DNA from: a virus
Taxonomy: Duplodnaviria > Caudoviricetes
Virus record (IMG/VR): IMGVR_UViG_3300037484_000907
Location: 1-27,783 of that record
DNA length: 27,783 nt
Reading direction: 5' to 3' (one strand)
The notes under the pieces were generated by a model, which did not search any database, was not told the origin of the DNA, and saw only the letters and a list, made by a program, of their open reading frames with translations. The position numbers were made by a program, and so were the translations under genes. How positions within the stretch are numbered: the stretch's first letter is position 1; every line of letters starts with the position of its first letter. Shown here piece after piece: positions 5,810 to 27,598 of this stretch.

Positions 5810-6550
5810 ATGGCTGCACCTATTCTGAGTTCGGTTTCGCCGCTGTCCGGACCCCCCGGGACGGCGGTGATCTGCCTGGGCTCCGGCTTCGACGCCGGCG
5901 CCCAGGTCGGATGTCCGGGGCTGGTGGCGACCACGTTTGTGAGCGCCACCGAGCTTCACGCGTCCATTCCCGCGGACCTGGAGGGGCTGGCCGGCAGTTC
6001 GGTGGTCATCTCTATAATCGTTTTCAACGAGGACGGATCCAGTTCAGCGGCGCTCCCATTTACGGTCCGATTTGGGCAGACGTGGACCACGGTGCAGGCG
6101 GTGTGCGGGGAAGTGCCGCAATTCAAGCGGGGCGGAACGATTCCGGACACCACGATCGACGGGTGGATCTGGTCGATCGCGCAGGCGGTCAATGCGGCCA
6201 TGTTGGGGCGCGGACTGTCGATGGATCCGGGCAATTGGGCGCAGCCGGCGGCCGGCGCGTTGGAGCCCGATCCGGCGTCGGTGCTCGAGCTGATCGTGCG
6301 GTACGGGGCGGCAGCCCGGCTGGCGTCAGTGGTGGGATCGCAGTTCGCGGCCACGGGGGAATGGGGCCTGGCGAAGACGCTGCGCGCGGACTTCGACCGG
6401 GAGCTGAAGGCGCTGGCCGGCGGCGCGTACGACAAGATTTTCCGTCCGGGGGCGGCGACGGTGGAGACCGGCACGCTCGTGGGCGGCGGGGACATTGCGA
6501 CTTCGACCGGGGACGCCGACCAGGCGTTCTCGAAAGGACAGGTGTTCTGA
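5810..6550 (+). CDS. Head-tail adaptor (Mu gp36-like) with an N-terminal IPT/TIG Ig-like domain, 246 aa
   Basis: Residues 1-86 (PILSSVSPLSGPPGTAV...GSGF..GAQV...TTFVSATEL.A.IPA...N.DG..S..LPFTV) follow the IPT/TIG pattern. The rest (WTTVQAV...IDGWI..IAQAVNAAM..RG) is helical and adaptor-like, directly after the capsid gene. Confidence 0.75.
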   Translation: MAAPILSSVSPLSGPPGTAVICLGSGFDAGAQVGCPGLVATTFVSATELHASIPADLEGLAGSSVVISIIVFNEDGSSSAALPFTVRFGQTWTTVQAVCGEVPQFKRGGTIPDTTIDGWIWSIAQAVNAAMLGRGLSMDPGNWAQPAAGALEPDPASVLELIVRYGAAARLASVVGSQFAATGEWGLAKTLRADFDRELKALAGGAYDKIFRPGAATVETGTLVGGGDIATSTGDADQAFSKGQVF

Positions 6551-6927
6551 TGCAGGGTTTGATGCGGAAAGGATCGTGGTGGGCCACGGTGGGCATGTTT
6601 GCGGCGCTGCTGACCTTGATCGGGTTGGGGATAATGGCACCGACGACGGCCAGTCCACCGGGATTGATGCATTTGCAGGCGGCGGAATTGCCGCCCCAGT
6701 TACTTGAGATTTGGGTGATGACTCCGCTCGGGATGGTGCAGGTGCGGCCGGAGGGTTCGATACAGATCGACCTGGCGGCCAGGCCGCCGGCAATTCGCGG
6801 GGCGGAATGCCTCGCGGAGCCCGCTCCGGAGGACGCGAGTAAGAGCGGACTGAGTCGGTGGAGCGACCTGAATCACCAACCTACTCAAAGGCCGATACTC
6901 TTCTTGCCAATCCGGGGGCCGAGCTAG
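6550..6927 (+). CDS. Hypothetical membrane-anchored or exported protein, 125 aa
   Basis: It is TGATG-coupled to the upstream stop. A basic N-terminus is followed by hydrophobic WWATVGMFAALLTLIGLGIMA. Confidence 0.55.
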   Translation: MQGLMRKGSWWATVGMFAALLTLIGLGIMAPTTASPPGLMHLQAAELPPQLLEIWVMTPLGMVQVRPEGSIQIDLAARPPAIRGAECLAEPAPEDASKSGLSRWSDLNHQPTQRPILFLPIRGPS

Positions 6928-9956: not shown

Positions 9957-12342
9957 TTCCAGCGCGAATTTGCTGTTCAACATCTCGGCGGATCCTTCCG
10001 CGGCGCAAAGCAACATAACGGCGTTTCGCGGGCTGTTGTCGAAGGACCTGGGCGCGATGGGAGCGGAGTTCGAGGGCTGGTCGAAGAAAGTCTTCGGGAA
10101 TCTGACGACGGTGTCGGGCGGATTCGCGGCGGTGGGGGCGGCGCTGGCGGCGGGGGTGGTCGCGGCCGCGGGGGCGATGTCGGCGGCGGCGGACAAGGCC
10201 GCCGACTACGCGCTCAAGATCGAGGACGGCGGCGAGAAGACGGGGATCGCGTCCGAGGACATGAGCAAGCTGCACTACGCGGCGCGGATGACGGAGACGC
10301 GGTATGAGGCCCTGGTCGGCGGATTGACGAAGTTCGCGTCGACCATCGACAAGGCCCGGGATGCGACCTCGCAGCAGGCGGCCGTATTCCACCGGATGGG
10401 GATCTCGCAGGCTGAGATCGAGGCCGGCTCGCGGAACATGCTGCCTCTTTTCTACCGCGTGACGGATGCCTTCAAAGACCAAATGACCGCGGTGGAGCGG
10501 ACCGCGGTGGCGCGGGATCTGTTCAGCCGGGGGGGCGCGGAACTGGTCGAGATGCTGAAGCGCGGGTCCGGGGCGCTGCGGGATATGGGGGACGAAGCCA
10601 CCCGGCTGGGGCTCATCATTACCGAGCAGGACATCGTCGCGGCGAAGGAACTCAAGGCCGAGATGGCGTTCCTGAAGGCCGAAACCGAGGCGCTGACGCT
10701 GTCATTGGGAAAGCTGTCCATGCCCCTCAAGACAGATTTCCTCATTGGCGTCGAGGGCATGATCGGGGGGATGAAGGCGGCCCTGGCGGGCGGATCCGGG
10801 GACCTGATGGGGTTGATCCGGAATTTCACGACCGGGTTCGCGGTGGCATCGGTGGAGGCCGCCGAGCGGATACAGCGGAACGTGCGCGCGGGAATGCAAG
10901 GCGTCGGCGAGGGACTAGAACCGCCGGAGGGGACCAAGAAAGTCACTCAGGATTTCTGGGGCCTGACCAATGTGCTCGAGCAGCTCCGGGCGAAGTCGGC
11001 GGCGGCGCAGGGGGAAGAGGCAAAGCTGGGGCAGGAGTTTGCGCACCTGCGACTGGAACTGGGGAAGGCCGGCGAGGAGTTCAAGAAGTTGCGAGATTCC
11101 GGAAAGTTGGATCCGGAAGCGATCAAGCGGGAGCAGGCGGCGTTGCTGGGGATGTTCCCGGCGCTGATCAAGGCCGAGTCGGGGGCGTGGCAGGAACTCA
11201 TCGACAAGCGCGCGGCTGCGGTGGAGGCGGCGGGGGTGGACCTCCAGCAGCGGCTGCTGGGGCAGCAGGAACGGACGGCCGAGGGGGAGCGGGCGGCGTG
11301 GGACGCGGAGATCGTCCGGCTCACGGCGCACCTGGCGAAGGCGAAGACTCTGACGGAGGCGAACCAGGCTCTGATCGCGGAGGTTCATCGGGCGGGGCTA
11401 TACAAGATCGCGCGGGAACAGAACGAGGCGTTCGTGCGGGAGCTGGCGACCTTGCAGCACGAACTGGCCGCGACGTTCGGGGCACGGCAGACGAACGCCG
11501 AGCGGCTGAAGTGGCAATACGATCAGGACCTGGTGAAGTTCGGCGAGGTGGAGGAAGCGAAGACGCTGAAGACCGCGAGCAGCGAGGCCGAACGCGAGAT
11601 TATCAGGCGGCAATACGACATGAACCGGGCGGCGGCATTTGCGCGATACGGCGAAGAGATGACGGCGCTGTACAACTCGCAGGGCTGGCAGGGGCTGTTC
11701 GGGGCGGAGTTCGCGCAACGCATTCGGGGCAACGAGGCGCTGCTGCGGGAATGGGCGTACAGCGCGGACCAGTCGCTGATGATGGTGCGAGTGGCGGCGG
11801 AATCGCTGCGAGAGATGGCCGTGAAGACGTTCGGCCAGTTTGCGCAGGCGATGGGGCAAAACATCGCGCAGGCCATCGTCTACAAGAAATCGATTGGCGA
11901 GGCGATGCGGGCGGCGGCGGCCGAGACGATGGCGGCGATCGCGGCCGAATCGTTCGTGCAGGCGATCTACGCGACCGCGATCGGCTTCATCCGGCTGGCG
12001 CAGCACGATTACGTGGCGGCCGGCCAGGCGTTCCAGGCGGCGGGGATATTCGCGGGCGTGGGCGTGGCGGCGGCGGTGGCGGGAAGGGCTATTGCGCCTA
12101 AGCAGGCGGGCGCTGGCGCGGCCGGAGGGGCGGGGGAAGGGGTAAGCGGCGGCGGGAGCGCGGCGGGGGCCTCAGAGGCCCAGGAAACGCGCGGGCCAAG
12201 GGTCCAAATCATTATCAATGGGCACATCGTCGGGCGGCAGGGGATCGAGGAGATGATGCAGATGATGAACGAGGCGGTGCGGGATCGGGACGTGTCGCTG
12301 GTGGCCAGCGGGGTCAAGAACAATACGAGGTTGCTGCGATGA
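9946..12342 (+). CDS. Tail tape measure protein, 798 aa
   Basis: Long Ala-rich helical ORF after the chaperone. The N-terminus LLFNISAD and the segments KTGI..E..S.L.YAA, F.RMGIS and ARDLFSRGGAELV..L..GS are typical. Confidence 0.93.
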   Translation: MSIDSSANLLFNISADPSAAQSNITAFRGLLSKDLGAMGAEFEGWSKKVFGNLTTVSGGFAAVGAALAAGVVAAAGAMSAAADKAADYALKIEDGGEKTGIASEDMSKLHYAARMTETRYEALVGGLTKFASTIDKARDATSQQAAVFHRMGISQAEIEAGSRNMLPLFYRVTDAFKDQMTAVERTAVARDLFSRGGAELVEMLKRGSGALRDMGDEATRLGLIITEQDIVAAKELKAEMAFLKAETEALTLSLGKLSMPLKTDFLIGVEGMIGGMKAALAGGSGDLMGLIRNFTTGFAVASVEAAERIQRNVRAGMQGVGEGLEPPEGTKKVTQDFWGLTNVLEQLRAKSAAAQGEEAKLGQEFAHLRLELGKAGEEFKKLRDSGKLDPEAIKREQAALLGMFPALIKAESGAWQELIDKRAAAVEAAGVDLQQRLLGQQERTAEGERAAWDAEIVRLTAHLAKAKTLTEANQALIAEVHRAGLYKIAREQNEAFVRELATLQHELAATFGARQTNAERLKWQYDQDLVKFGEVEEAKTLKTASSEAEREIIRRQYDMNRAAAFARYGEEMTALYNSQGWQGLFGAEFAQRIRGNEALLREWAYSADQSLMMVRVAAESLREMAVKTFGQFAQAMGQNIAQAIVYKKSIGEAMRAAAAETMAAIAAESFVQAIYATAIGFIRLAQHDYVAAGQAFQAAGIFAGVGVAAAVAGRAIAPKQAGAGAAGGAGEGVSGGGSAAGASEAQETRGPRVQIIINGHIVGRQGIEEMMQMMNEAVRDRDVSLVASGVKNNTRLLR

Positions 12343-12566
12343 ACTGGGAGCTGGCCCTGGCCTACCAGGTTCTGACATCGACGGTGTGCCAGTGCCGGCG
12401 GACGAAGTCGGTCCACCTGGCGGTGTGTGAGCGGTGTTGGAAGCGGCTGCCGGTGGCGGAGCGCAACGCGCTTTACCGGCGGGTGGGCGAAGGATTTGGC
12501 GCGGCGTACGAGACGGCGTGCCGGCTGCTGGGCCGACAGGCCGACCAATTGGAGTTGGGGATCTGA
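12339..12566 (+). CDS. Small Cys-rich (CxC...CxxCW) zinc-finger-like protein, 75 aa
   Basis: Coupled on both sides (ATGA and TGATG). The sequence includes CQCRRTK...CERCWKRLP...RNALY. Confidence 0.7.
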   Translation: MNWELALAYQVLTSTVCQCRRTKSVHLAVCERCWKRLPVAERNALYRRVGEGFGAAYETACRLLGRQADQLELGI

Positions 12567-13012
12567 TGGGACTGCCCCTGGTGACTTATCCCGCGGCCAC
12601 GGAACACACGCACTTGCAGTTCGAGCGCGGGCCGGTGGGTTTCAGGTGCCAGGCGAAGGCGATCGTACACGACAACGAGGCGACGAGCGGGATACGGGAG
12701 CGGGTTACGGAGCGGGTCGATCTGCTGCTGTCTTTCACGATGCCCGCGATGCGGGTGGATGACGACCTGGCGGATTGGTCGGCGTTCATGGAATGGGCGT
12801 TGGGGGGCGGGGAGTTCTGGTTTTCTCCGGATTCGGACCTGGCGGACTATTACACCTGCGTTTCCGAGGATGAGGAGTTTACGCCGGAGCGGAGGGCTCC
12901 GGGGGTGTACTCGGCGTCGTTCGTGTGGCGGATCGTGCCGGACGAGCTGGCGCCGGCGGGACCTGGCGACGTGTTGGGGGCGTTTTATGGCACATCGCAA
13001 TTGCCGGCATGA
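12566..13012 (+). CDS. Probable distal tail protein (Dit-like), 148 aa
   Basis: ATG at 12566. It lies just after the tape measure and shows a N.A.SG.RE...L.F...W.AF..WA..G..F.F.PD pattern. Confidence 0.65.
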   Translation: MGLPLVTYPAATEHTHLQFERGPVGFRCQAKAIVHDNEATSGIRERVTERVDLLLSFTMPAMRVDDDLADWSAFMEWALGGGEFWFSPDSDLADYYTCVSEDEEFTPERRAPGVYSASFVWRIVPDELAPAGPGDVLGAFYGTSQLPA

Positions 13013-13036
13013 GAAGGAACTGGAGGCTTTAGTGCG

Positions 13037-13471
13037 ATGAAGGCGCTGTCACTACCTCAGCCGCTGGCCACTCTGGTGGTGTGCGGTCTGAAGCAACTCC
13101 ACCCCGAGTGCTGGCGCACGGGGTACCGGGGGCCAGTGGCGATTTACGCGCTCGACAAATATCCGCAGGGGGCGGAACTGAACCTTTGCGAGATGCCGAC
13201 AGTGCGGGGGGCGCTGTATGGCCAGGGATGCAGGAACCTCTTCGAAGTGCCGTTGGGCGCCGTGATTGGAACGGTCGAACTAGTGGATTGTATCATGGCC
13301 GAACATTTGACCCCGATCCTGCTGACCAGGCGGGAGCAGTTGTGGGGGGAATACAAGCCGGGGCATTGGGTATTCGTGTTTCGGGCGGCGGTGAGGTTTC
13401 GGAAGCCGGTGGCGGCGGTGGGGGGTATGGAGTTGTGGGACTGGCGGGGGTCGGTGGGGGCATGCGCATGA
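13037..13471 (+). CDS. ASCH-domain protein with a degenerate motif, 144 aa
   Basis: SD GGAGG. It reads MKALSLPQPLATLVVCGLK...W.TGYRGPVAIYA...PLGAVIGTVELVDC...G...LW.W. Confidence 0.85.
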   Translation: MKALSLPQPLATLVVCGLKQLHPECWRTGYRGPVAIYALDKYPQGAELNLCEMPTVRGALYGQGCRNLFEVPLGAVIGTVELVDCIMAEHLTPILLTRREQLWGEYKPGHWVFVFRAAVRFRKPVAAVGGMELWDWRGSVGACA

Positions 13472-14259
13472 GCACCAAGATCGAGTGGGCGGATGAAACC
13501 TGGAGTCCGGTCGTCGGGTGTTCGAAGCGCACGGCGGGCTGCGATAACTGCTACGCGATTCGGGAATGTCACCGGATGGGGTGCAATCCGAATGCGGCAA
13601 TGCGGGCGAACTATGGCGGGCTGGTGATGCCGGACGGGAAGGATTGGACGGGCGAGGTTCGGCTGCTGAAGCACCGGCTGGATCGGCCAGGACAGTGGAA
13701 TACTCCGAAGCTGGTGTTCGTGAACCCGCTGGCGGATCTGTTTCACAATCGCGTGCGGATCGCGTGGGTCGAAGAAATCTTCGATGTGATGCGGACCTAC
13801 CATCAGCACACCTACATTGTCCTTACGAAACGCTGGCAGTGGATGCAACACATTTGCCCATCGCCGCCGTTGCCGAACCTGCTGCTGGGTGTGTCGGTGC
13901 ACGATCGACAAAGCTTCGACCAGGCCTGGCCGTACTTACGGGAGACGCCGGCGGCGGGGCGAGTTGTGAGTCACGAGCCGGCGCTGGGGCCGCTGGGGCT
14001 GCCCGCGGATGCGGTGGCGGGGGATCGGCGCCTGGCCTGGGTGATCTGCGGCGGGGAATCAGGCAAGCGCGCGCGGCGGATGGATCAGGATTGGGCCCGG
14101 AGGTTACGCGACCAGTGCGCGGCGGCGGAGATTCCATTCTTCTTCAAACAGTGGGGGGAGTGGGGTCCGGATTCTTCGGTGCGCGTGGGAAAGAAGAAGG
14201 CCGGGCGATTGTTGGACGGGCGGACATGGGACGCGCGGCCGTGGGTGAGGCGGGCATGA
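13468..14259 (+). CDS. DUF5131 (phage Gp37/Gp68) family protein with a three-Cys radical-SAM-like motif, 263 aa
   Basis: Motifs are MSTKIEWADETWSPVVGCSKRTAGCDNCYA, FVNPLADLFH, LTKR, LGVSV, VSHEPALGP, WVICGGESG..AR and PFFFKQWG. Confidence 0.93.
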   Translation: MSTKIEWADETWSPVVGCSKRTAGCDNCYAIRECHRMGCNPNAAMRANYGGLVMPDGKDWTGEVRLLKHRLDRPGQWNTPKLVFVNPLADLFHNRVRIAWVEEIFDVMRTYHQHTYIVLTKRWQWMQHICPSPPLPNLLLGVSVHDRQSFDQAWPYLRETPAAGRVVSHEPALGPLGLPADAVAGDRRLAWVICGGESGKRARRMDQDWARRLRDQCAAAEIPFFFKQWGEWGPDSSVRVGKKKAGRLLDGRTWDARPWVRRA

Positions 14260-14891
14260 GCTACTTCAACCTGGAGATCGATCCTCGGGAGGCGCGGAGT
14301 TTGGAACACACATTAAATCGCCGGTACAACGGAGCACAGTTATTCGCGGTGAAGGCTCCGGACGCGGCGGGGACGCTGAAGGTCTGGGCGACGGATTTGG
14401 ACGAGGCGCGGGAGCACGTCCTCAACGCGATGTTCGATCTTGTGTTCAATCGCCTGCGGGTGGGCGCCCATCTGGAGAATCCGAAGTGCATTTTCTGCGG
14501 TCACAAGACGGAAAGCCGCGGGCGAAACAGTTCCGGGACGCGGGGGTATCGTTGCTTGAACCCCGAATGCCGGCGGAATTTTGTGCTGCACCGGACGTTT
14601 CGGGGCGGGGTGAATCATCCATCGCAAAGTAAAAAGCCGGAGTTTGCGCGGTTGCTATTGGCTGGCACTCCTGTGGCCGAGGCGGCGGACCGGTTGGGAC
14701 TTAATCATCAAACGGCGGGGAACTGGGGGGCGCAGATCGAGGCATTGAACTGCGAGAAGTTCGCGGAATTGAAGTGCCGGTGCGGGCGGGCCTTGCGGCA
14801 TCGGGGGATTTGCATCCACAGATACACGCCGGAGGGGCTGGCGCGGATGATTGCGTCGGTACGGCGATCGCCGCGGAGGGCGACAGCATGA
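14256..14891 (+). CDS. Zn-ribbon plus HTH DNA-binding protein (IS1 InsA-like architecture) with an extra C-terminal CxC..H..C motif, 211 aa
   Basis: PKCIFCG...GRNSSGTRGYRCLNPECRRNF, HTH LLLAGTPVAEAADRLGLNHQTAGNW and CRCGRALRHRGIC. ATGA-coupled on both sides. Confidence 0.7.
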   Translation: MSYFNLEIDPREARSLEHTLNRRYNGAQLFAVKAPDAAGTLKVWATDLDEAREHVLNAMFDLVFNRLRVGAHLENPKCIFCGHKTESRGRNSSGTRGYRCLNPECRRNFVLHRTFRGGVNHPSQSKKPEFARLLLAGTPVAEAADRLGLNHQTAGNWGAQIEALNCEKFAELKCRCGRALRHRGICIHRYTPEGLARMIASVRRSPRRATA

Positions 14892-15241
14892 GCGCAGATG
14901 ACAAGGGGAAGCTGCACCGCGTGGTGCGGTTGGTGGGCGGCGGGGATCAGTTACTTGGTTACATGATCGAGTGTCCGGGCTGCGCTTTGAACACGGCGCC
15001 GGGAGCCTCCCAGCATCATGTGATCTGGGTCGGGGAAGCGAACGGTCAACGTGCGACATGGTCTTTTAATGGCGATATGGAACACCCGACCTTTTCGCCT
15101 TCGGTACGCGTTTCTTGGGAGGAAGGCGAGGACCGTAAGTCCCGCTGTTGCCATTTTTTCGTACGCGGCGGTTGGATCGAGTTTTGCGCCGATTCAACGC
15201 ACGCTTTGGCGGGACAGACTGTGCCCTTACGAGAATGGTGA
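14888..15241 (+). CDS. DUF6527-like Cys/His metal-binding protein, 117 aa
   Basis: ECPGC...H...WSFNGDMEHPTFSPSV...CHFFVRGGWIEFCADSTHALAGQTVPL. Confidence 0.8.
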   Translation: MSADDKGKLHRVVRLVGGGDQLLGYMIECPGCALNTAPGASQHHVIWVGEANGQRATWSFNGDMEHPTFSPSVRVSWEEGEDRKSRCCHFFVRGGWIEFCADSTHALAGQTVPLREW

Positions 15242-15251
15242 GTTACCCGAT

Positions 15252-15842
15252 ATGAGCGCGCGGAAATACAAGGCGAACGAGCAGATTGACGGGCTGATCC
15301 GCTGGGCGTATGACCGCTTTCGGAGGCATTGCGATCGCGGGGCGCTGGCGATGGCGGCGCGGCGGATCGGATGGCCCGGGTACGCCGTAAAACATCGCGG
15401 GCGAGATCTTGGATTGGCGCGCGCGAAGGAGCCTATCTGGAGCACTCGCGAACTCGAGCTGTTGGCTAAGTGGGGCTGGATGGGGGACGAGCGGATCTCG
15501 CTGCGATTGAGGGCGGCGGGGTTTTCGCGGTCTGCCACGGCGGTTCACCTGAAGCGCAAGCGGATGCGGATCTGCCGGAACGGGGATTGGTATTCGGCGA
15601 CGTCGCTGGCGGAGGCGATGGGGGTGGACTCGCACAAGGTGATGCGGTGGATTGGGGCGGGGGTGTTGGAGGCGGAGCGGCGGGGGAGCGCGCGGACGGA
15701 GTTGCAGGGCGGGGACACCTATCTGATCTTGCGGGCGGCGGTGAAGGCGTTTCTGCTGCGGTGTCCGGATGAATACGACCTAGGGAAGGTCGAGAAGTTC
15801 TGGTTTCTGGATTTGATCACGGACGGGAAGATATGCCGGTGA
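15252..15842 (+). CDS. Multi-HTH DNA-binding protein (Myb-like repeats plus MerR/Xis-like winged HTH), 196 aa
   Basis: WSTRELELL...ISLRL...RSATAV..KRKR followed by YSATSLAEAMGVDSHKVMRWIGAGVL.A...YLI.R.AV..F. Confidence 0.7.
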   Translation: MSARKYKANEQIDGLIRWAYDRFRRHCDRGALAMAARRIGWPGYAVKHRGRDLGLARAKEPIWSTRELELLAKWGWMGDERISLRLRAAGFSRSATAVHLKRKRMRICRNGDWYSATSLAEAMGVDSHKVMRWIGAGVLEAERRGSARTELQGGDTYLILRAAVKAFLLRCPDEYDLGKVEKFWFLDLITDGKICR

Positions 15843-16168
15843 AGATCTGGGATCAGGCCGCGATCGGCGAGTGGGCGGATGCGACGTTCGGCCGGGCGGC
15901 GAGCGCGGCGATCATTGGCGCTCGCGCGAACGTCGAGATGGCGGAGCTGCTGCGATGGCTGGCGAAAGATCCGAACGGGATGGGAACGCCCACCGAGGAT
16001 GAAGCTGCCGATGTCGCGATCGTTTTGTTTCGCCTGGCGCATCAATGCCGGTTTGATTTGCTGGCGGCGGTTTCTAAAAAGATGGAAATCAATGTCCAGC
16101 GCCGGTGGGAGCGGGAGCCGGGCGGGTGCGGCCGGCACGTTCGGGTGAACGAGGAGGCGGCGACGTGA
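15833..16168 (+). CDS. MazG-like nucleotide pyrophosphohydrolase (dATP/dGTP pyrophosphohydrolase, DUF550-like); start may be GTG at 15839
   Basis: EWADATFG...EMAEL...EAADVAIVL...DL..AV.KKMEIN..RRW matches the all-alpha NTP-PPase pattern. Confidence 0.78.
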   Translation: MPVKIWDQAAIGEWADATFGRAASAAIIGARANVEMAELLRWLAKDPNGMGTPTEDEAADVAIVLFRLAHQCRFDLLAAVSKKMEINVQRRWEREPGGCGRHVRVNEEAAT

Positions 16169-16581
16169 AGGCTCTATCGCTGACACAACCATGGGCCACG
16201 CTGGTGGCGATCGGGGCGAAACGGGTCGAGACGCGGAGCTGGGAGACGGGGTATCGGGGGCCGCTGGCGATTCACGCGGCGAAGGGGTTTCCGGACTGGG
16301 CGATGGATACTTGCCAGGAGAAACCTTTCCGGAGCGTACTTTTGGCGGCGGGAATCGCGGGGGTGTGCGATTTGCCGCGCGGGGCGGTAATCGCGACGTG
16401 CCGCCTGGTCGGTTGTGTGCCAACCGACATATTCTTCCCAGCCGAACGGGAGCGAGCGTTCGGGGACTTTGATTCCGGCCGTTTCGCTTGGCTGCTCGAT
16501 GACATAGTTCCTCTGCCGGCGCCGATCCCGGCCAAGGGCGCGCTCGGACTATGGGCGTGGGAACTGCCGGAGGCGGCGTGA
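16165..16581 (+). CDS. ASCH-domain protein with an intact motif, 138 aa
   Basis: GTG at 16165 with SD GAGGAGG. It reads KALSLTQPWATLVAIGAKRVETRSWETGYRGPLAIHAAK...GDFDSGRFAW.L...PIPAKGALGLW.W. Confidence 0.92.
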   Translation: MKALSLTQPWATLVAIGAKRVETRSWETGYRGPLAIHAAKGFPDWAMDTCQEKPFRSVLLAAGIAGVCDLPRGAVIATCRLVGCVPTDIFFPAERERAFGDFDSGRFAWLLDDIVPLPAPIPAKGALGLWAWELPEAA

Positions 16582-18643: not shown

Positions 18644-21601
18644 ATGCCACAGGTTGCCGCGGCTCCGAATATCGAGCGGACGGGCGTGATCGCGGGATTC
18701 GTGCTCTCCTTGGGGGGCGCGGGCCTGATCCCGGCGATTACGAAGGGCGTGCTGTTCGCCCAGGGATCGATGTATCGTCCCGCGTTGATTCCGATATTGC
18801 CGGCGGCGCCGGCGTCGCAGCAGAGCTGGCTGTTCTACAACTTCGGCAGCGCGTGGTATTGGGCATCGTCATTCACGCCGGGGACTGCCGGCGATGCGTT
18901 CGTGGGCTGGGTTGTGACGTCGGCGAGCGAAGTGCTCGCCGTGAGCGGGCAGCAGATCGGGGAGACGGGCGAGGGATCGACGGTGCTGCCGGGCGGGTCG
19001 GTGAGTCCCGAGGGGCCGGGTGTGGGAGTTCCGGCGGCGCCGGGCAACGTCACGCTCACCAGCATCGAGGTCATCGAGCGCTTCGTTCGGGACGGCGCGC
19101 AGTTCCAGCGGCTGGGCCTGAAGGGCACGGCGCCGGACCCGCTGGCGACATTCCGAGGCATCCACGTCTACGCCGAGATCCCGGACGGGTGCGATGCCGA
19201 ACAGGCGCGCGTGGAGGACGCCGTCGTCGGGACGTCGGTGGTCGGGATCGAACGCGAGCCCATTGATTTCGGAAAACACACCTATATCGCCGAGAACGTC
19301 CACCTGGCGGTGTGGGAGATCCCGGACGTGGAGGCCTCCACGCCGGCGCGGTTCTATGCGGTCCCTTACTCCGAGACCAGGGAGAACGACCTGGTCTATG
19401 CGGACGAGGCCGATCCAACGCCGTCTCTCGCGATCACGCTAACGCCGAACCCAGTCATCATTTCCGGCGAGGAGTATGCCCCGAACGCCTCCGGCTTCGC
19501 GCTGATTGTTGGTTATCCGTTCTACGAACTCCGAAACAACGTCTGGACCTACCAATTCGGGTTCGACTGGATCGCGCCGACCAGCTCGCCGCAGTTCTCG
19601 GCTCTCATCGGCTACGAGGTGGTGTTCGAATACGCGGACGGGTCGCGGGCGCCGGCGGGTTGGATTGCGCCCGATCAGACGACATGGGTATCGGGGCAGT
19701 GGCCATGTCCGTTGACTGAGACGATCATCGCCTGGCTGGTTTCGGCGGGTGCGGAGGGCGAGAACACCATCATCGAGGGTGTCACGCCCAAGTTGACGAT
19801 CACTATTACGCGACCCCTCGATGTGACCCCTGGCCAGGAGTACGCTCCCTTGGTGACTGGGCAGACTGCCTCAGTCGCGGTGGAACAGACCACCGATGGC
19901 GTCGAGACCTATTCGTTCACATTCGCGTGGGGCGCGCCGGCGAGTGATGAGTTGGCCGCTGTCCATGTGTGGGCTCGCGAAACCGTGCGAGATGAGTGGG
20001 TATTTCTGGGCCGCGTCGAAGCGATCGACAACGGCGAGCAGATCAACGGCCCGCACCCGCTGGTGCAAGCCTGCACCTTCGATATTTGGTTTTATAGTGA
20101 AGCGCGCGACGGCCGCGTAAACACTCACTCGGATACCGTCACGCCCCACGTTCATCTGGCGCAGATCACCCCGAGCGCGGATCCAACGATCATTCGCGGG
20201 CGGGTGATTCCGATCGCGGCGCCGCCCGGGCCGGCCTCGAATTCTTCGACCATCCAGACGGCGACCATCGGGGGCGTGCCGTCGTTCCGGTTCCACCTGG
20301 TCACGTCGACCGGCGGTGGGACCACTGACGGGTACTTGGCGCAGGCGCGCTATTACTCCGACTCGGGGGCGACCACTCCCACGTCCGACTGGATTCCCCT
20401 CGGCTGGATCGACCCGGCCGTCACGACGCTGGATACTCCCTACTGGCCACGGCCGGCCGTACAGGATTACGCCAAGGTTCGGATCGCCGCGCAGACCGCA
20501 GACAACACACTGGGCCCGTGGCTGGAGAGTGCCATCCTGACGCGGCCAGCTTCCACGGGGTTAGAGGGAGGCAGCATCGCGCCCGCCACGCTGGTCACAG
20601 CGGCGTTCGCGAACACGATCCGGCCGGTGACGTTGGTAGCCACGGGTTCGGCGCTTCCCGCTCTGCCAAATCCTCTTTACCCGCCCGGCGCCGCCGCCTA
20701 TATCATCGACGCGGCGACCCTGATGAAAGTCAACCAAGCGAACACGGAATGGGAAAAGTTCATCCATGGCGGAAAGGATGTCATCGCCGGGACGATCACA
20801 GCGAACGAGATTTACGCCCATAGCATCACGGCGGGGCAGATCGCGGCCGGGGCGATTGGCACTTCGGAACTCTACGCTGGAGAGATCCTGGTCGGGTCCG
20901 GGGGCGGCAAGCCCACCCGATTCCGGGTCAACGACTCAGGCGGGAATCAGGTCTGTTTCATCGGCGACAACGGCGCCGGTTTCATTGGCGGGTACTTCAT
21001 CAATTTGCTTGTGGGACCGACCATTGGCAGCCCTTGTATCACGGCCAACAGTTCCGGGGTGAGCTTCAGTAACACTCCGCTGACCATCGTCAACGGCAAC
21101 CTGACGGTGACGATCAATGGGACGGACGGGATCAAGGTCACTCACACGTCGTACAACCGATACGTCCTTCTGAACGCCGCGCAGGTTTACGTCGGGCACA
21201 CCACGGATGAAGACAATTTCGCCACCCTGACGAACACGACGCTGAACATTCAGTTCGCGGCCGGCGGGAACGCGGTCGTCGCCCACCATGGCAATGGCGG
21301 CGCACCTTACCTCGTTGTGTATGGCGCGTCCGGGTATATCGAAGCCGCGCTGTTCAAGGCCACCATCAGCGGCAGCACCTACTCCGGCCTGACGTCATCG
21401 GCATCGTTCGGATCTAGTTACGGCCTGACGTTGTACAAGATGCGTCTGGGAGCCACGGACTTGGAATACAGCCCCGACAACGGGGCAAACTGGTATCCGG
21501 TTGGCTCATCGGGGGTCAACTTTGGCGTTGGAATGAGCACCCTCCAGGTGATGACTCTGACGTTTAAGGCCGGCCTTGTGACGAACGTGGGGGTGGTTTG
21601 A
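18644..21601 (+). CDS. Large tail fibre/host-specificity protein with about four FN3/Ig-like domains and a beta-strand shaft, 985 aa
   Basis: Repeated modules (AAPGNV, GEEYAP...F.W.AP...ENT...VTP, GQEYAP...F.W.AP...VNT...VTP, APPGP) are followed by the pentapeptide shaft AGTITANEIYAHSITAGQIAAGAIGTSEL. No signal peptide. Confidence 0.8.
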   Translation: MPQVAAAPNIERTGVIAGFVLSLGGAGLIPAITKGVLFAQGSMYRPALIPILPAAPASQQSWLFYNFGSAWYWASSFTPGTAGDAFVGWVVTSASEVLAVSGQQIGETGEGSTVLPGGSVSPEGPGVGVPAAPGNVTLTSIEVIERFVRDGAQFQRLGLKGTAPDPLATFRGIHVYAEIPDGCDAEQARVEDAVVGTSVVGIEREPIDFGKHTYIAENVHLAVWEIPDVEASTPARFYAVPYSETRENDLVYADEADPTPSLAITLTPNPVIISGEEYAPNASGFALIVGYPFYELRNNVWTYQFGFDWIAPTSSPQFSALIGYEVVFEYADGSRAPAGWIAPDQTTWVSGQWPCPLTETIIAWLVSAGAEGENTIIEGVTPKLTITITRPLDVTPGQEYAPLVTGQTASVAVEQTTDGVETYSFTFAWGAPASDELAAVHVWARETVRDEWVFLGRVEAIDNGEQINGPHPLVQACTFDIWFYSEARDGRVNTHSDTVTPHVHLAQITPSADPTIIRGRVIPIAAPPGPASNSSTIQTATIGGVPSFRFHLVTSTGGGTTDGYLAQARYYSDSGATTPTSDWIPLGWIDPAVTTLDTPYWPRPAVQDYAKVRIAAQTADNTLGPWLESAILTRPASTGLEGGSIAPATLVTAAFANTIRPVTLVATGSALPALPNPLYPPGAAAYIIDAATLMKVNQANTEWEKFIHGGKDVIAGTITANEIYAHSITAGQIAAGAIGTSELYAGEILVGSGGGKPTRFRVNDSGGNQVCFIGDNGAGFIGGYFINLLVGPTIGSPCITANSSGVSFSNTPLTIVNGNLTVTINGTDGIKVTHTSYNRYVLLNAAQVYVGHTTDEDNFATLTNTTLNIQFAAGGNAVVAHHGNGGAPYLVVYGASGYIEAALFKATISGSTYSGLTSSASFGSSYGLTLYKMRLGATDLEYSPDNGANWYPVGSSGVNFGVGMSTLQVMTLTFKAGLVTNVGVV

Positions 21602-22086
21602 TGAGCCCAAACCCGCCTTACATTCCGTGCTGGATGGGCAACGATCCGATCCGCTACTGGGTCTCGCCGGAGTTGGAGTTTTGCCGGCCGCTAAGTTCCC
21701 TGGCGCTCCAGACCTGGGAGCGGGAGCGGACTCCGGACGGCCGGCCGCTGAGGCTGCACTTCGAGGAAGTGGCCATCCCCGGGTTGCCGCGGTCAATCGA
21801 TATCCGCCTGGCGCCGCTGGTGGGGAACCTGGGTATCGCCATGTACCCGCCGCCATTGATTAAGGAGCCATTCGCCGGGGACGTCACGATCAACGCCAAC
21901 TGCAATTGGCAGGACCCGCGCTGGCGGGAGCTGATGCTGGCGTTGTTGATTCACGAGGTTGGCCATGCGCTTGGGTTGCCAGAGTCCTACTTCGCGGAGT
22001 CGGTCATGTGCCCGAACATCGACTGCCGGAAAGTGAACCTGGCGGCGGTTGATAAAGAGATGGTGCTGACGCTGTATGGGAGCTGA
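21601..22086 (+). CDS. Matrixin-like (metzincin) zinc metallopeptidase, 161 aa
   Basis: TGATG-coupled to the fibre. It contains LGIAMYPP...AGDVTIN, HEVGHALGLPE and the Met-turn SVMCP. Confidence 0.8.
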   Translation: MSPNPPYIPCWMGNDPIRYWVSPELEFCRPLSSLALQTWERERTPDGRPLRLHFEEVAIPGLPRSIDIRLAPLVGNLGIAMYPPPLIKEPFAGDVTINANCNWQDPRWRELMLALLIHEVGHALGLPESYFAESVMCPNIDCRKVNLAAVDKEMVLTLYGS

Positions 22087-22087: not shown

Positions 22088-22444
22088 ATGAGACGGTTCT
22101 TGACAATCATTATTCTGGCGGTGCTCGCGGCCTTCCAAGGCCTCGCGGACCAATGCGGCGAGTTGCCCTGCACTTACATGCTGGTTCCGATGCGGGCACT
22201 GGGCGAGACACTCGGATTCAAGGCGGACTACGACCAGGTGCAGGTTTTCATGCAGGCCGAAAACCTGGAGACACGGGCGTTCCTAGTCACAGTGCGCTAC
22301 CGGTGGCAGGGACAGGCAGCCGAGAGCGTTCACGTCGCGTTGCGGTGGCCGGATGGGTCGAGCATCTTGACGCTATTTTTCTACGACATCCGGGATGTCC
22401 AGATCGAGAGCATAGACATCCGAACGCTGGGGTTCTTGCGATGA
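22088..22444 (+). CDS. Small exported protein with a signal peptide, 118 aa
   Basis: SD GGGAG. The N-terminus MRRFLTIIILAVLAAFQGLA-D has n, h and c regions, and there is one Cys pair (QCGELPC). Confidence 0.7.
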   Translation: MRRFLTIIILAVLAAFQGLADQCGELPCTYMLVPMRALGETLGFKADYDQVQVFMQAENLETRAFLVTVRYRWQGQAAESVHVALRWPDGSSILTLFFYDIRDVQIESIDIRTLGFLR

Positions 22445-22644
22445 ACGAATACAAACTCTCTGACGTCGAGCGCAAATTGCTCGTCGATCTGAACGGTCAA
22501 GCGCAGCAGGCGGCAGCCGCTGCCATCGCGCCCTTCAACAAGATGTCAGAGGGCGTCCTTACCTTGATCGCTCTCCAGCAGGGACTCGCCGGAAATTGGC
22601 AACTGACCGACGATAAATCGGCACTCGTGAAACAGGAGGGGTGA
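22441..22644 (+). CDS. Small helical hypothetical protein, 67 aa (possible fibre chaperone)
   Basis: ATGA overlap. It reads MNEYKLSDVERKLL...WQLTDDKSALVKQEG and its end contains the SD AGGAGG for the next gene. Confidence 0.65.
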   Translation: MNEYKLSDVERKLLVDLNGQAQQAAAAAIAPFNKMSEGVLTLIALQQGLAGNWQLTDDKSALVKQEG

Positions 22645-22645
22645 C

Positions 22646-23371
22646 GTGGCGAAACCAACAGTCCCGGCGGATGGCCAGAAAATCACACAAGCCTTCCTGC
22701 AGGGGGTGACCGATGGACCTTACGCCTGGCAGGATCACGTTAACGCCGGCGGCAAGGTGCTCTCCAACCTGGGCGGGCTGAACATGGCACCGGGCGCCAC
22801 GCTCGGCATCCTGACGTACCTGTCAGACGTCGCCCTGACCGCTCCGACGACGGTTGTATCCTCTCCGGTGGTCTCGCCGGCCGCAAACACTCGGCTGATC
22901 GTCGCGATCTCGCAGGATGCCACGGGCGGCCGGGCGATCACATGGTCGGCCGATTTCGTGGGGCCGACGACGGAGATCGCCACCGGAGCGAACGAGACAT
23001 CGGTGTTTCAATTCGTGGCGCTGAGCGATGGCAAATGGTATTTGGCCTCCAGGCCAATCTTGGGCATCACCGGCGGCGCGGTCTCGCCGGCCATCTACGC
23101 CGGCGGATCGATCTACATGGCCGAGTACACACTCACCGCGCCAACGGCGGAGATCGTCTCTCCTTTGTCGAGTCCGGCGGCGGGCGCCATCCTGGCGGTT
23201 TACCTGACGCAGGACGCCACCGGCGGACGGGCGATCACTTGGAGCGCCGATTTCATTGGACCGACAACGGAGATTGCCACCGGAGCCAACGAGGTCTCGG
23301 TCTTCAATTTCGTCGCGCGGAGCGACGGCAAGTGGTGGTTATCGGCACTGCCGATTTTGGGGGTTGCATGA
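22646..23371 (+). CDS. Tail-fibre-associated protein with two tandem copies of a beta-rich QDATGGR domain, 241 aa
   Basis: GTG with SD AGGAGG. The motif LTAPT...SP..SPAA...QDATGGRAITWSADF.GPTTEIATGANE.SVF.FVA.SDGKW.L...PILG occurs twice, 99 aa apart. Confidence 0.8.
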   Translation: MAKPTVPADGQKITQAFLQGVTDGPYAWQDHVNAGGKVLSNLGGLNMAPGATLGILTYLSDVALTAPTTVVSSPVVSPAANTRLIVAISQDATGGRAITWSADFVGPTTEIATGANETSVFQFVALSDGKWYLASRPILGITGGAVSPAIYAGGSIYMAEYTLTAPTAEIVSPLSSPAAGAILAVYLTQDATGGRAITWSADFIGPTTEIATGANEVSVFNFVARSDGKWWLSALPILGVA

Positions 23372-25056
23372 ACGCGAAATTTTTGAGTCTTTTGCTGCTG
23401 ACCGCGGTCGCGGGGTACGGTCAGCGCACACAGGCGCTGATCAACCAGAGGCTCACGAAACCGGTGATCTATGCCTACACGGTGGCGACCCTACCCACGT
23501 CCGGGGGAGGGCTCACAGTTGGGGCGGTTGCCGTCGTAAACGATGCCACGATTGCAGGCTCTTGCACATCGGGCGGGGGTTCGCTGATCGCTCTCTGCCG
23601 GTGGAATGGGTCCGCTTGGGCCTCTCTCGGGGGCGCGACGGGCGGCGGTAACGTGACAGGCCCGGCTGCTGGGACTGGGGGCGAACTGACAACGGTAAGC
23701 GCTGATGGGCTGACCTTGAGCCGATCCGCCTTGACGGGCGTGCTCAAGGCAGCCGCCGGCGTGCCATCCGTTGTGACCGGAACGGGCTCAAACTGCGTCC
23801 ATGTGGACGGAACCAGTGCGACTTGTGCAACCGGCGGTGGAGGCGCGAGCGTCGATCTCACCGATTTCGGTCAGAGCGTCAGTACCACCAGCGTCACAGA
23901 CGACACGCTCAACATCGCCGCTGGCCGCGCCAGGGTGGGCAACTACGTCCCTCCCGCTATCGTGGCTGGCCACGTCCAATTCACCTCCGGCCCGGGTGGC
24001 AACGTCAAAGTGTTCATCGATCAGAACAATAACCTCGTTTGCCACATGGCAACTGGCATCGTGGCGACCCCATCCGGGTCGATGACTTGCTCCAACGTTT
24101 CAACGCCGACGTATCCGCCGAACTCGATCCCTGTCGCGGACGTGACCGTCAACTCCAGCCAGGCGATCACCAACGTCACCGACGACCGCGCGTTTTTCTC
24201 GAACCGTGGCATCAGCGCGGCGACGGGCATCAGCATAAGCGACGCTGGCGGCGTGGCCTCGATCGGCATCGACACGGCCACGATGCCTATGCTTGGCCAG
24301 GCGAATGCGTGGACGGCCGCGAATGACTTTACGGCGGCAACGAATTTCTATATTCGGCGTGGCAGTGGCGCCCCGGCATCCGGAGAGTGCGATGCCGCCG
24401 CTGAGGTTGGGCAGGTGTACGCTCGTTCTGACGCGGCGGCTGCCAACGCAACGTTCTACGTCTGTTCGAAGACCGGGGGTTCGACTTACGCCTGGGAACT
24501 GCTCGGCGGAGGGGGAGCCTACACAAAGGCTCCACACGTCTTGCACTTTCCGTTGGCCTTCCGTAACGCAGGGGGAACCATTTATCCTGGAGTGAACATC
24601 TTCAGCGGTACCCTATCCGATGCCACTTCCGGTTCAGATGCCGTATCGTATCTTGCGTTCGCCGATGCGGTGACAAATGGAGTGACACTGCTGTTTCCAA
24701 TCCCGAGCGACTGGGATGGCGGAACAGTCAGCCTAAAGAGTTTCTTCTTCCCCACTACTGGTGGATCGAATGGACAGGTGATCCGTTTCGCCGCTTCGGC
24801 TTATTGTGTGGGGGCGGGAGAGGACGCCTATGGGTTGACGTTCTCATCCGTCCAGAATATCGATACCACACTATCGGACGCTACGGAATCGAAACTTAGA
24901 ATCGCAACCCTCGCGTCGTTGACGATGAATGGCTGTTCTGCGGGGGAGTTCGTGCACGTCCTTGTGGAACGGCTGGGCTCGGACGCGGCGGACACGCTTA
25001 CCGCAACGGCTAGAATGCTCAACGTCGAGCTGAGAATGTTGGTGAATCTCCCATGA
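23368..25056 (+). CDS. Fibre/adhesin-like mosaic protein with an apparent signal peptide, 562 aa
   Basis: ATG at 23368 (ATGA overlap). The N-terminus is MNAKFLSLLLLTAVAGYG-Q. It has fibre motifs YTVATLP...WNGSAW and GSGAP...GQVY...YVC...W, a C-terminal jelly-roll-like domain (P.DWDGGT...DTLTA.AR) and 10 Cys. Confidence 0.8.
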   Translation: MNAKFLSLLLLTAVAGYGQRTQALINQRLTKPVIYAYTVATLPTSGGGLTVGAVAVVNDATIAGSCTSGGGSLIALCRWNGSAWASLGGATGGGNVTGPAAGTGGELTTVSADGLTLSRSALTGVLKAAAGVPSVVTGTGSNCVHVDGTSATCATGGGGASVDLTDFGQSVSTTSVTDDTLNIAAGRARVGNYVPPAIVAGHVQFTSGPGGNVKVFIDQNNNLVCHMATGIVATPSGSMTCSNVSTPTYPPNSIPVADVTVNSSQAITNVTDDRAFFSNRGISAATGISISDAGGVASIGIDTATMPMLGQANAWTAANDFTAATNFYIRRGSGAPASGECDAAAEVGQVYARSDAAAANATFYVCSKTGGSTYAWELLGGGGAYTKAPHVLHFPLAFRNAGGTIYPGVNIFSGTLSDATSGSDAVSYLAFADAVTNGVTLLFPIPSDWDGGTVSLKSFFFPTTGGSNGQVIRFAASAYCVGAGEDAYGLTFSSVQNIDTTLSDATESKLRIATLASLTMNGCSAGEFVHVLVERLGSDAADTLTATARMLNVELRMLVNLP

Positions 25057-27527
25057 GGATCATCGTTTTGATTTTCGCGTGTGCCTTGGTGTGGGGCGCT
25101 CCTACCATCCAAACGGTTACTACCGGCGCGGAATTGCAGACCGCCATCAATACCGCCGCTGCCGCTGACAGCGGGCCGCAGATCATCGTCCTGACGGCGG
25201 GCAACAACTTCGACACGGCGGGCGGATTCACTCTTCCGGCGCGCTCGGGAAGTTATACCGGATGGATCACGCTGAGATCGAGCCGAATCTCGGAGCTGCC
25301 AGGGAAGACCCGCGTAGTTCCTGCCGACTCTGCCAAGATGGCGACGCTGCGAGTGACGGCAGGCGGCTACGCTCCGGTGATGTACACCAGCGGCCACCCG
25401 TCCGCATACTGGCGACTGGAGGGATTGGAGTTCACTCTTTCCACAACCAGCCTGAGTAATCAAGGGTGGCTCGTTGGAATCGGGGCAGGAACGGACGCGG
25501 GGGAAACCGAGCCGTCCCTTGTCTCGCATCACTTCGTCGTAGACCGCTGCTACATTCACGGAATCGCCTTCGACAACGGGCCGCGAGACGGCATCCGAGT
25601 CAACGGAGACGATGTTGAGGTTCTCAATTCCTACATCAGCGAGATCAAGCGGGACGATACCGAGACGCATGGCATTCTGGGCTACAGTCTCAACGGGCCG
25701 GTCTTGATTCGGAACACCTTTGTGGGCGGGGCCTCGATAGGCAGCTTGATCGGCGGCGCGAACGCCAGCAATGTGAGCATCCAGCCGAGCAACGTCCAGT
25801 TCCTCGGCAATCACTACCAGGGGACACCTACGCATCGGGCGCTCCGGTTTGTAGGGGCGCCACAAGGCACGGCAGCTCCTAGCGGGGCTGGGGTCGCTCA
25901 GACCTACTGGAAGACGGACACAAGCGAATTCTACGTCTACGGTTCCGCGGCTTGGCGACTTGTCGCTACTGGTATCACCGGCAACGTCTGCATGGATGGG
26001 GACTTCTGGTCCGATACGTCCGGACCAACTCACTATATATGTTCTGGAGGAGTTTGGACCTCCACCGGGGCCGACCGCACCATCACAGGCGGAACGCCTC
26101 CTTTTACCGCCTTCGCCTCGAAAAACAGGTTCGAGCTGAAAAAGGTCACCGGTGCGCTAGTGGAGGGGAATCTGATTGAAAACTGCTTCTCCCCAACCAC
26201 CGGGCAGCAAACGTGCTCGGCCTTCCTGCTCAACTGGGTCACCGACCAGGACCAGCCTTGGTCCACCCTGCGGAACATCACCATTCGCAACAACCTCATT
26301 CGTCGAACGGGGCAAATGTACGTGGAGGGAGTCATAGACTCCCCGAGACGCGGAGATTTTCTACAGCGTTGGCCTCGCGAGAACATGGCCGAGAACAACC
26401 TGGTCCAGGACGGAAACAATCCCGGCATACTTCAGGCGATCAACAGGCTCTCGTATTACAATGTGCCGCCGGTGACGACAGGTCTTGGTGGTGTTGGCGT
26501 CAACGGATTCGACGGCTCCAGGTTTATCCACAACACCGTCATCAATCCACTGGCAAGCGAGAACTTCTGGCCCAACAGTTTCGTGTACGGCGAGGCGGGC
26601 ACAGCCGCGGGCCGCAATATGTCCGACAACATCTTTGAGGTTGGAGGGCTTAGCAACGCCGCATACTGGCTGGACCACGCTGGGTGCTCGGGCTTCGATG
26701 AGCATTGGCCGAAGCACAATCTCAAGAACAACGTGCTGGTGCATCTTGGCCACCAGCTAGACAGCAGCGTACCAGGATGGTTCGACTTTGCTGACTGCCG
26801 AACTTGGGCCACATCCTGGAAGCGCAGCGGGGCCGGAGTGAGCAATCCGATCTATTCGGCGTCCATTGCCGCCGGAGTGTTGACGATTCGATTCGGTACT
26901 GGACCCGACGATTACTGGAAGGGCCACGGACTTCTCCAAGGGACCAAGGTGAAGTTGTCGGGATGGACTCCCGCCGGGTTGAATGGAACGTACACCATTC
27001 CCCGGTTGTGGTGCGGCTCTGGGTCCACCATCACCGCGCAGAGTTATCAGCCAACGCTGTGCCTGCCAACAGCGGAGACAGGCGCGGTAACGCCGGGCAC
27101 CATCGAAGCCAGCATCGACTACACCGACTACGCCGCGCTGAACTTCCGGCTCGCCGCGACCAGCGCCTACAAAGGCTGGGCCACAGATGGCTCAGACCCC
27201 GGAGCGAACCAGGACATGGTGGAGTGGGCCACGGCGACGGCCGCCAGTGGGACGGATAATCCGTACCTCGACTTCCGGGTGCGCTCGATCACGCCTACCT
27301 CTGACGGGGCTGTGTTCCGCTATACGGCCTACTCGACGGCCGCCTGCACCTGGCGGGCGTCTAGCACCAGGGCCTTCTCGGACAATCTTGGAAGCTGGGG
27401 CAGCGAGACACGCATTGGGCGGGATGGCTCGATCACGGTCACAGGGCTGACCAGCAACACCGGGTATTGGTACCGGATGACGTGCGATTCGAAGATCAGG
27501 GACGGGGAGGTCGTGACCACGCATTAG
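25053..27527 (+). CDS. Right-handed beta-helix (pectin-lyase-like) protein with a signal peptide and a C-terminal FN3-like domain; putative glycan depolymerase/adhesin, 824 aa
   Basis: The N-terminus MRIIVLIFACALVWG-A is followed by the cap ELQTAIN.A...IVL.AG. Asn-ladder rungs include VVDRCYIHG, VLNSYISE, LIRNTFV, LVEGNLIEN, ITIRNNLIR and FIHNTV. The C-terminus reads ITVTGLTSNTGYWYRMTC. Confidence 0.85.
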   Translation: MRIIVLIFACALVWGAPTIQTVTTGAELQTAINTAAAADSGPQIIVLTAGNNFDTAGGFTLPARSGSYTGWITLRSSRISELPGKTRVVPADSAKMATLRVTAGGYAPVMYTSGHPSAYWRLEGLEFTLSTTSLSNQGWLVGIGAGTDAGETEPSLVSHHFVVDRCYIHGIAFDNGPRDGIRVNGDDVEVLNSYISEIKRDDTETHGILGYSLNGPVLIRNTFVGGASIGSLIGGANASNVSIQPSNVQFLGNHYQGTPTHRALRFVGAPQGTAAPSGAGVAQTYWKTDTSEFYVYGSAAWRLVATGITGNVCMDGDFWSDTSGPTHYICSGGVWTSTGADRTITGGTPPFTAFASKNRFELKKVTGALVEGNLIENCFSPTTGQQTCSAFLLNWVTDQDQPWSTLRNITIRNNLIRRTGQMYVEGVIDSPRRGDFLQRWPRENMAENNLVQDGNNPGILQAINRLSYYNVPPVTTGLGGVGVNGFDGSRFIHNTVINPLASENFWPNSFVYGEAGTAAGRNMSDNIFEVGGLSNAAYWLDHAGCSGFDEHWPKHNLKNNVLVHLGHQLDSSVPGWFDFADCRTWATSWKRSGAGVSNPIYSASIAAGVLTIRFGTGPDDYWKGHGLLQGTKVKLSGWTPAGLNGTYTIPRLWCGSGSTITAQSYQPTLCLPTAETGAVTPGTIEASIDYTDYAALNFRLAATSAYKGWATDGSDPGANQDMVEWATATAASGTDNPYLDFRVRSITPTSDGAVFRYTAYSTAACTWRASSTRAFSDNLGSWGSETRIGRDGSITVTGLTSNTGYWYRMTCDSKIRDGEVVTTH

Positions 27528-27570: not shown

Positions 27571-27598
27571 AGGCGACCGGCGGAGGCGGTCGCTTTTA
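27571..27598 (+). terminator. Probable intrinsic terminator of the late operon
   Basis: GCGACCG-(GCGGAGG)-CGGTCGC followed by TTTTA, with no downstream ORF. Confidence 0.65.

Follow-up and report, generated by a model that had tools for sequence, protein, structure and literature searches.

Why would the last genes in the late operon of a tailed phage encode proteins that carry export-type leaders and paired cysteines? This question is posed by three genes, P0001, P0002 and P0003 (starting at 22088, 23368 and 25053), in the IMG/VR virus record IMGVR_UViG_3300037484_000907, whose entire length of 27,783 bases is the window studied here. The window holds a single late operon, in which Pfam and PHROG searches recognise Mu-type portal and protease genes along with major head, tail completion and tape measure genes. 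No sheath gene was recognised by these searches among the window genes, and a long non-contractile tail is therefore inferred. The host probably belongs to the Bryobacterales (Acidobacteria), because metagenome-assembled genomes of that order hold both relatives of P0003 and prophages syntenic with the window. A sequence-only reading of this DNA had proposed that the three genes encode tail-fibre-like proteins that are exported by Sec and folded with disulfides in the periplasm. What it did not foresee is that the two large genes, P0002 and P0003, constitute a module that also occurs in polysaccharide loci of Bryobacterales without phage genes.

The leaders proposed for these genes are real, well above chance and conserved in homologs, as judged by a rule of our own (basic n-region, hydrophobic h-region, small residues at −3 and −1) rather than by SignalP. 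All three genes pass, as do two others among the 30 called window genes (5/30 in total), namely one at 6562 that looks like a membrane protein gene and one at 13037 that is probably a false positive; the background rate is 55 of 6000 internal stretches (0.9%). The 985-aa and 241-aa products of the neighbouring genes P0004 and P0005 were confirmed to be leaderless, with five scattered cysteines and none, respectively. A survey of relatives for conserved leaders, which the sequence-only reading had suggested, gave passes for 18 of 20 full-length rows of the P0003 family, some at a later methionine; one of the two misses is cut at its N-terminus and the other has a longer leader. Similarly, a leader is seen by eye in 17 of 18 P0002 relatives, and the remaining one is cut. 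The wider P0003 family is large (5624 representatives at E 0.001), and of the 175 members examined 109 pass. Thus, carrying a leader is the rule in this family and does not reflect an addition to a phage fibre. Throughout, the leader sequence varies while its basic-hydrophobic-small-residue pattern is kept, and conservation starts directly behind it. We consider it very likely from these patterns that the leaders of P0002 and P0003 are cleaved and that both proteins are exported.

The cysteine layout is as it had been described: one pair in P0001 (C23/C28), five in P0002 (C66/77, 143/153, 225/241, 341/366 and 480/523), and five pairs (313/330, 378/388, 545/582, 654/670 and 765/811) plus the single C166 in the mature part of P0003, whose leader contains C10. 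Specifically, pairs 313/330, 545/582 and 765/811 are kept in all 20 aligned P0003-family rows, and 378/388 is gained or lost jointly (both in 14 rows, neither in 6), whereas 654/670 is less cleanly paired than the other four. A CxxxC pair near the N-terminus, common in the family, is not present as a pair in P0003. The modules of P0002 carry two cysteines each in nearly all leader-bearing rows. An even number of cysteines was abandoned as a disulfide test, as it is seen in 35 of the 109 P0003-family proteins with a leader and in 35 of the remaining 66; the test fails because the unpaired C166 is conserved in 83 of 112 rows. Co-presence of cysteines across 119 rows also fails to single out pairs, as clades dominate. 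Regardless, it is highly probable that P0002 and P0003 contain disulfides, and export by Sec with disulfide folding in the periplasm is well supported by the conservation of leaders and cysteines, an argument made from sequence.

P0003 is predicted to be a right-handed beta-helix with high confidence (AlphaFold2 with a 119-row alignment, pLDDT 93.3, pTM 0.94; the alignment was used in place of a single sequence, which gave a pLDDT of only 31.8). Its best structural match is the alginate lyase 6kfn (Z 25.7, rmsd 2.6, 279 aligned), followed by AlgE4 (Z 25.6), RbmB (Z 24.2) and the Dettilon tailspike (Z 23.8), and Foldseek relates it to the HK620 tailspike at E 2e-7. A close profile of P0003 gave no sequence match in the PDB. 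On the strength of the model, glycanase activity is likely. The beta-helix begins at residue 16, right behind the leader, and no N-terminal particle-binding domain is present in the model; P0003 may act like a tailspike, yet we do not class it as one. Its C-terminal domain, here called F, is FN3-like: 12-13 of 20 rows give sub-threshold PhoD_N / Pur_ac_phosph_N matches, and a relative in contig L020 matches fn3 at E 9e-4. Leaderless beta-helices of the P0003 family occur in phages as well, and in two podovirus contigs (L010 8855-12067 and L013 8855-12070) they are fused to a C-terminal piece of a head-closure protein, which means that this fold family does serve on virions. The head-closure gene (PHROG 578) of these contigs seems to be split, with its C-terminal part behind the beta-helix.

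Only P0002 retains the tail-fibre-like label: it lies in the tail operon and combines a fibre-type tip with shaft modules, whereas P0003 is a beta-helix of the enzyme type and nothing in P0001 suggests a fibre. Phage fibres without a leader, such as gp74 of EBPR siphovirus 2, end in the same tip domain as P0002, and the only matches to the mature N-terminus of P0002 are repeats in other fibres that carry leaders. No Pfam or PHROG match was obtained for P0002, including its N-terminus, and its second named domain, M, corresponds to no Pfam family. In a separate observation, a leader-bearing tip-domain protein in contig L137 (7647-8456) falls within a leaderless, pair-free clade and may represent a separate gain of a leader. 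The ATGA coupling that had been proposed for two of the three genes is present at 23368 and 25053; P0001 instead starts one base after the previous stop. Neither P0002 nor P0003 has a tblastn match in cultured phages (50,697 phage records).

P0002-like and P0003-like genes are adjacent and in the same order both in phages and in Bryobacterales contigs. Phage context is established by capsid matches for the window and contigs L005 and L027, and by look only for L032 and L038; the host copies sit among flippase, epimerase, amidotransferase and MBOAT genes, where no phage genes were seen. Among 29 distinct loci encoding M, an F gene comes next in 17, one of them with a 96-aa gene between. In the remaining loci, the beta-helix gene is cut by the contig end (4), F is weak (1), M is partnerless (3; L113, L122 and L165) or the partner is not visible (4). 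Conversely, M lies upstream of F in 17 of 19 distinct F loci. For these counts duplicates were merged by hand, and loci were fetched via one domain, so only the other side is unselected. F occurs at the C-terminal end of beta-helix or esterase-like cargo, and at the N-terminal end of cysteine-rich proteins of 1300-1500 aa (E 8e-5 to 0.055). Because the M-F gene neighbourhood is constant while the cargo and the position of F vary, the pattern suggests a dock (M) plus a tag (F). Binding of M to F is on balance favoured by these sequence patterns; a complex prediction, made weaker by supplying M without an alignment, returned no answer (score 0.00) and so counts neither for nor against it.

How did the same module come to reside in phages and in their hosts? 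Host proteins that contain M mostly open with another conserved domain; this N-terminal domain was detected in 250 of 401 Bryobacterales genomes (249/400 without the unpublished genome G226) and not in P0002. The M domain itself was recovered with a host query in 29 of 201 host genomes, a count that replaces an earlier underestimate of 7/401. A careful tree was built from 10 rows whose context is known. In it, three host copies cluster with those of the window and L027 (100/100), and monophyly of the host copies is rejected (p-AU 0.0033), with long branches flagged; homologs of unknown context were excluded from this tree and included in a quick tree. Since host monophyly is rejected, more than one transfer between phage and host is indicated. 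Thus, phages and hosts exchange a secreted two-gene module, with transfer possible in either direction.

The host loci are of interest in their own right. Eight host contigs (L160-L167, from genomes G171, G239, G263, G223, G360, G209, G348 and G285) contain a two-gene secreted system of Bryobacterales, in which a protein with the conserved N-terminal domain, often with M, is followed by a protein of 1300-1500 aa (25-33 cysteines) or a beta-helix. This system is often found in polysaccharide loci. In another host locus (L020 6000-11783), an M gene precedes an esterase-like protein with F and then a beta-helix gene, giving one scaffold with two cargo genes.

Does the exported pair join the phage particle, or does it act at the cell surface or as a secreted factor, the other fate that the sequence-only reading had offered? 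Relatives of the window gene at 16578 occur in 3 of 401 genomes, and the tail end is readable in two of them, prophages G156 and G280, which are syntenic with the window (51-52% in the portal). After the 155-aa homolog, each carries only a leaderless protein of 240-250 aa that resembles the N-terminus of P0004 (47% identity to its first 105 aa, in the same slot, for G156; by eye for G280). This protein is ATGA-coupled to a leader-bearing fibre of 446 or 458 aa, followed by a small protein and then host genes, with no other long fibre ahead of the return to host sequence. The leader-bearing fibres of the two prophages do not match P0002. Thus, the window, G156 and G280 share a slot in which a leaderless protein is coupled to a leader-bearing fibre, although the fibres differ. 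Similarly, three complete, unrelated IMG/VR phages have runs of leader genes among their structural genes (the rule is passed by 12 of the 16 genes within the runs and by 3 of 125 elsewhere, with bounds drawn after seeing the results), and each has a separate leaderless fibre candidate, with a PHROG tail-fibre match in two of the three. Finally, gp085-gp087 of Cellulophaga phage phi18:3 (KC821620) all pass the leader rule, and GenBank annotates them with the note 'structural protein, MS/MS'. The shared slot, the leader runs and the phi18:3 annotation favour late addition to the particle.

We therefore prefer the following scheme, to which we assign a probability of about one half. P0002 and P0003 would be made late in infection, exported by Sec, and folded with disulfides in the periplasm, where P0002 would bind P0003 through M and F. 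At lysis the complex would attach to a leaderless tail adaptor and so provide the particle with an appendage predicted to cut glycans. For attachment to the virion with either P0005 or P0004 as the landing site, we regard the odds as about even. The module probably derives from the secreted fibre-plus-cargo system of the Bryobacterales host, and in the phage copy phage-type modules would have replaced the host N-terminal domain. Attachment to the virion is supported because the P0002 tip ends leaderless phage fibres and because this host domain is gone.

Several observations weigh against this scheme. The pair functions without a virion in host polysaccharide loci, with M and the host N-terminal domain as widespread in host genomes as the counts above indicate, and the window phage already encodes a leaderless fibre of 985 aa. 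The position of the pair differs among phages (in the window it closes the tail genes, in L027 it follows the capsid genes and in L005 it lies between adaptor genes), as is seen for inserted accessory genes, and its GC3 values of 0.69 and 0.74 lie below the 0.78-0.86 of core genes. No known virion anchor was recognised at the mature N-terminus of P0002. The association of the tip pair C480/C523 with a leader (the pair is present in 13 of 14 proteins that have a leader and in 0 of 8 that lack one, among 27 distinct tip domains, with three leaders called by eye and five cut or unclear rows set aside, two with the pair and three without) is a single split on the quick tree and counts as one event. 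The phi18:3 proteins are unrelated to ours, have 0, 1 and 3 cysteines, and are known from a GenBank note whose mass spectrometry match could reflect co-purification. Moreover, since the P0005-type domain is itself of the fibre-tip kind, the short leaderless proteins may suffice for receptor binding, and G156 and G280 may be decayed.

Alternatively, the pair may be exported late and have its effect at the cell surface or in the slime layer, as the copies in hosts probably do, loosening exopolysaccharide so that progeny can be released, or masking receptors, without ever joining the particle. We take this possibility seriously while judging it less likely than not. The host copies in polysaccharide loci, some of them about 70% identical to P0003, suit such a role, as do a leader that is the family norm, the varied insertion sites, the lower GC3 and the retained long fibre; the exported glycanase WceF (PMC7949094) offers a precedent. 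A purely surface-acting pair is harder to reconcile with phage copies that lack the host N-terminal domain and have gained phage fibre modules, or with sister prophages in which the sole long fibre seen is leader-bearing. In addition, no separate promoter-like site was found 5′ of the P0002 and P0003 genes, although this is a weak test.

The same high identity to host copies, phage-host exchange and lower GC3 could also mean that the pair is passive cargo from a polysaccharide locus, useless to the phage. This seems highly improbable, since the genes are undamaged and coupled in translation, have been rebuilt with modules of phage type, and persist in three or more unrelated kinds of phage (window, L005 and L027). 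Equally, the hydrophobic starts might be membrane anchors or assembly segments of proteins that fold in the cytoplasm and acquire disulfides by air oxidation after lysis. Virion disulfides without export have been described (PMC13576161), and the leader calls rest on our own rule instead of a signal-peptide predictor. However, the leader pattern is kept while its sequence varies, conserved sequence begins directly behind it, and the same leaders stand on host proteins of a broadly secreted family, all of which makes uncleaved starts very unlikely.

The preferred scheme calls for a leaderless partner at the tail end, and the genes around P0002 and P0003 (Table 1) include two candidates. The first ~110 aa of P0004 probably form a tail anchor, as judged from the match to G156; the protein has no Pfam or PHROG match. 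P0005 matches PHROG 4549 (tail fibre C-terminal part, E 1e-12), and its repeat resembles the domain with which the G156 anchor protein ends (E 1e-5) and not the C-terminal domain of the G280 protein (E 0.8). Neither P0004, P0005 nor the gene at 16578 has relatives in IMG/VR. P0001 appears from its sequence to be an exported accessory protein; no relatives were found (the best Atlas score, 0.80, is a mere lead), nor any Pfam or PHROG match. The 67-aa protein encoded next to it has no relative among the loci collected. The hairpin behind P0003 is suggestive by position alone, as terminator-like sites in the region number 9 against 8.8 expected by chance.

Table 1. Features at the tail end of the late operon (positions in the window).
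Feature	Position	Strand	Description
P0004	18644..21601	+	985 aa, leaderless, fibre-like, 5 scattered Cys
M10-type (matrixin-type) zinc metallopeptidase gene	21601..22086	+	Leaderless; start uncertain; PF00413 E 1e-8, above cut-off; between P0004 and P0001
P0001	22088..22444	+	118 aa, leader-bearing, C23/C28, not fibre-like
Small protein	22441..22644	+	67 aa, leaderless, Cys-free, ATGA-coupled to P0001
P0005	22646..23371	+	241 aa, leaderless, two-repeat; candidate adaptor or short fibre tip
P0002	23368..25056	+	562 aa, leader-bearing; mosaic and fibre-like, with one Cys pair in each of its five modules
M domain of P0002	23845..24291	+	aa 160-308, C225/C241; putative dock for F
P0002 tip domain	24520..25053	+	C-terminal aa 385-562, C480/C523
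P0003	25053..27527	+	824 aa, leader-bearing right-handed beta-helix, predicted polysaccharide lyase/hydrolase-type enzyme
F domain of P0003	27198..27524	+	aa 716-824, C765/C811, FN3-like; putative docking tag
Terminator-like hairpin	27573..27594	+	Directly 3′ of P0003

Other leader-type genes and neighbouring features were noted along the way. Small leader-type proteins of 83-99 aa lie beside leader-bearing fibres in phages and in one host (L143 9232-9531, L144 ~6212-6473, L109 8682-8945 and L167 6087-6377) and are possible periplasmic chaperones; the 67-aa protein of the window is leaderless and does not match them. Between their portal and protease genes, G156 and G280 carry leader-bearing, cysteine-containing genes that have no counterpart at this place in the window. 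Leader-bearing and mostly cysteine-containing genes also directly follow the portal gene in L143 (5544-9531), L145 (6900-10298) and L001 (9851-16071); some have GDSL esterase domains, and they are possible head fibres. The window further contains a non-structural block (12339-16581) between the tape measure and distal tail genes, with two ASCH-like genes and DUF5131, DUF6527 and pyrophosphatase-like genes, that is mostly missing from G156 and G280.

How does the P0002-P0003 pair compare with known systems? The tailspikes HK620 TSP and Dettilon gp208 have the same right-handed beta-helix fold, but P0003 has a leader in place of an N-terminal virion anchor, cysteine pairs, a C-terminal FN3-like domain and at most 14% identity in the Foldseek rows. 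Its best structural matches, the monomeric beta-helix lyases and epimerases 6kfn, AlgE4 and RbmB (Z 24-26), are likewise no more than 19% identical. Branched adaptor-plus-spike tails are found in phages G7C, K1-5 and CBA120, and prophages of the window type resemble them in having a variable receptor-binding gene after a conserved anchor gene. The adsorption protein pIII of filamentous phages has a Sec leader and periplasmic disulfides; it differs from P0002 and P0003 in belonging to a virion that is not tailed and is assembled at the membrane and extruded without a lysis step. To our knowledge, no route is known by which exported parts are assembled onto a tailed virion at lysis. Another likeness is to gp085-gp087 of phi18:3, which are leader-bearing tailed-phage proteins annotated as structural; neither M nor F was seen in them, although no search was aimed at either domain.

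Our literature search, which covered few subscription papers, found no article on Sec-exported, leader-bearing fibres of tailed phages or on M-F pairing. A host counterpart is WceF of Pantoea stewartii, an exported tailspike-like beta-helix glycanase in an exopolysaccharide locus that is possibly phage-derived. WceF is a single, host-only gene with a Tat signal and a P22-type head domain (PMC7949094), whereas P0003 has a 15-aa Sec-type leader without twin arginine, lacks a head domain, belongs to an M-F gene pair and has copies in both phages and hosts. The MAT fibres of Bdellovibrio are signal-peptide-bearing, mosaic, phage-fibre-like proteins, the hallmark of their superfamily being a conserved domain of ~130 aa behind the leader and an S74 or NS74 tip; the tips vary and one has a disulfide. 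Compared by description, they differ from P0002 in being adhesins on the surface of a predator cell that are not phage-encoded, and the available part of the account describes no docked cargo (PMC10769870).

The components at this locus are thus of known kinds, a fibre and a beta-helix glycanase, here of an exported type, and we give only a minority chance to their forming a novel route of assembly that relies on a docking pair not described before. In its broadest form the proposal is similarly tentative: tailed phages of Acidobacteria may complete their particles outside the cytoplasm, with exported, disulfide-bonded fibres and enzymes joining a leaderless adaptor at lysis through an M-F dock and tag that was borrowed from, and returned to, a system of Bryobacterales. 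With phi18:3 in culture, the central claim can already be put to the test. If attachment to the virion is true, then some tailed phages let the parts that recognise the host mature in the periplasm and add them at a late stage, contrary to the rule that assembly of tailed particles ends in the cytoplasm. This would also explain why the structural operons of many soil and sediment phages contain leader-bearing genes labelled 'hypothetical'. Whether the pair acts on the particle or on the cell surface, it points to a secreted scaffold-plus-cargo system in the Bryobacterales, an abundant soil order, and to a two-way traffic of enzymes between phage operons and the polysaccharide loci of their hosts.

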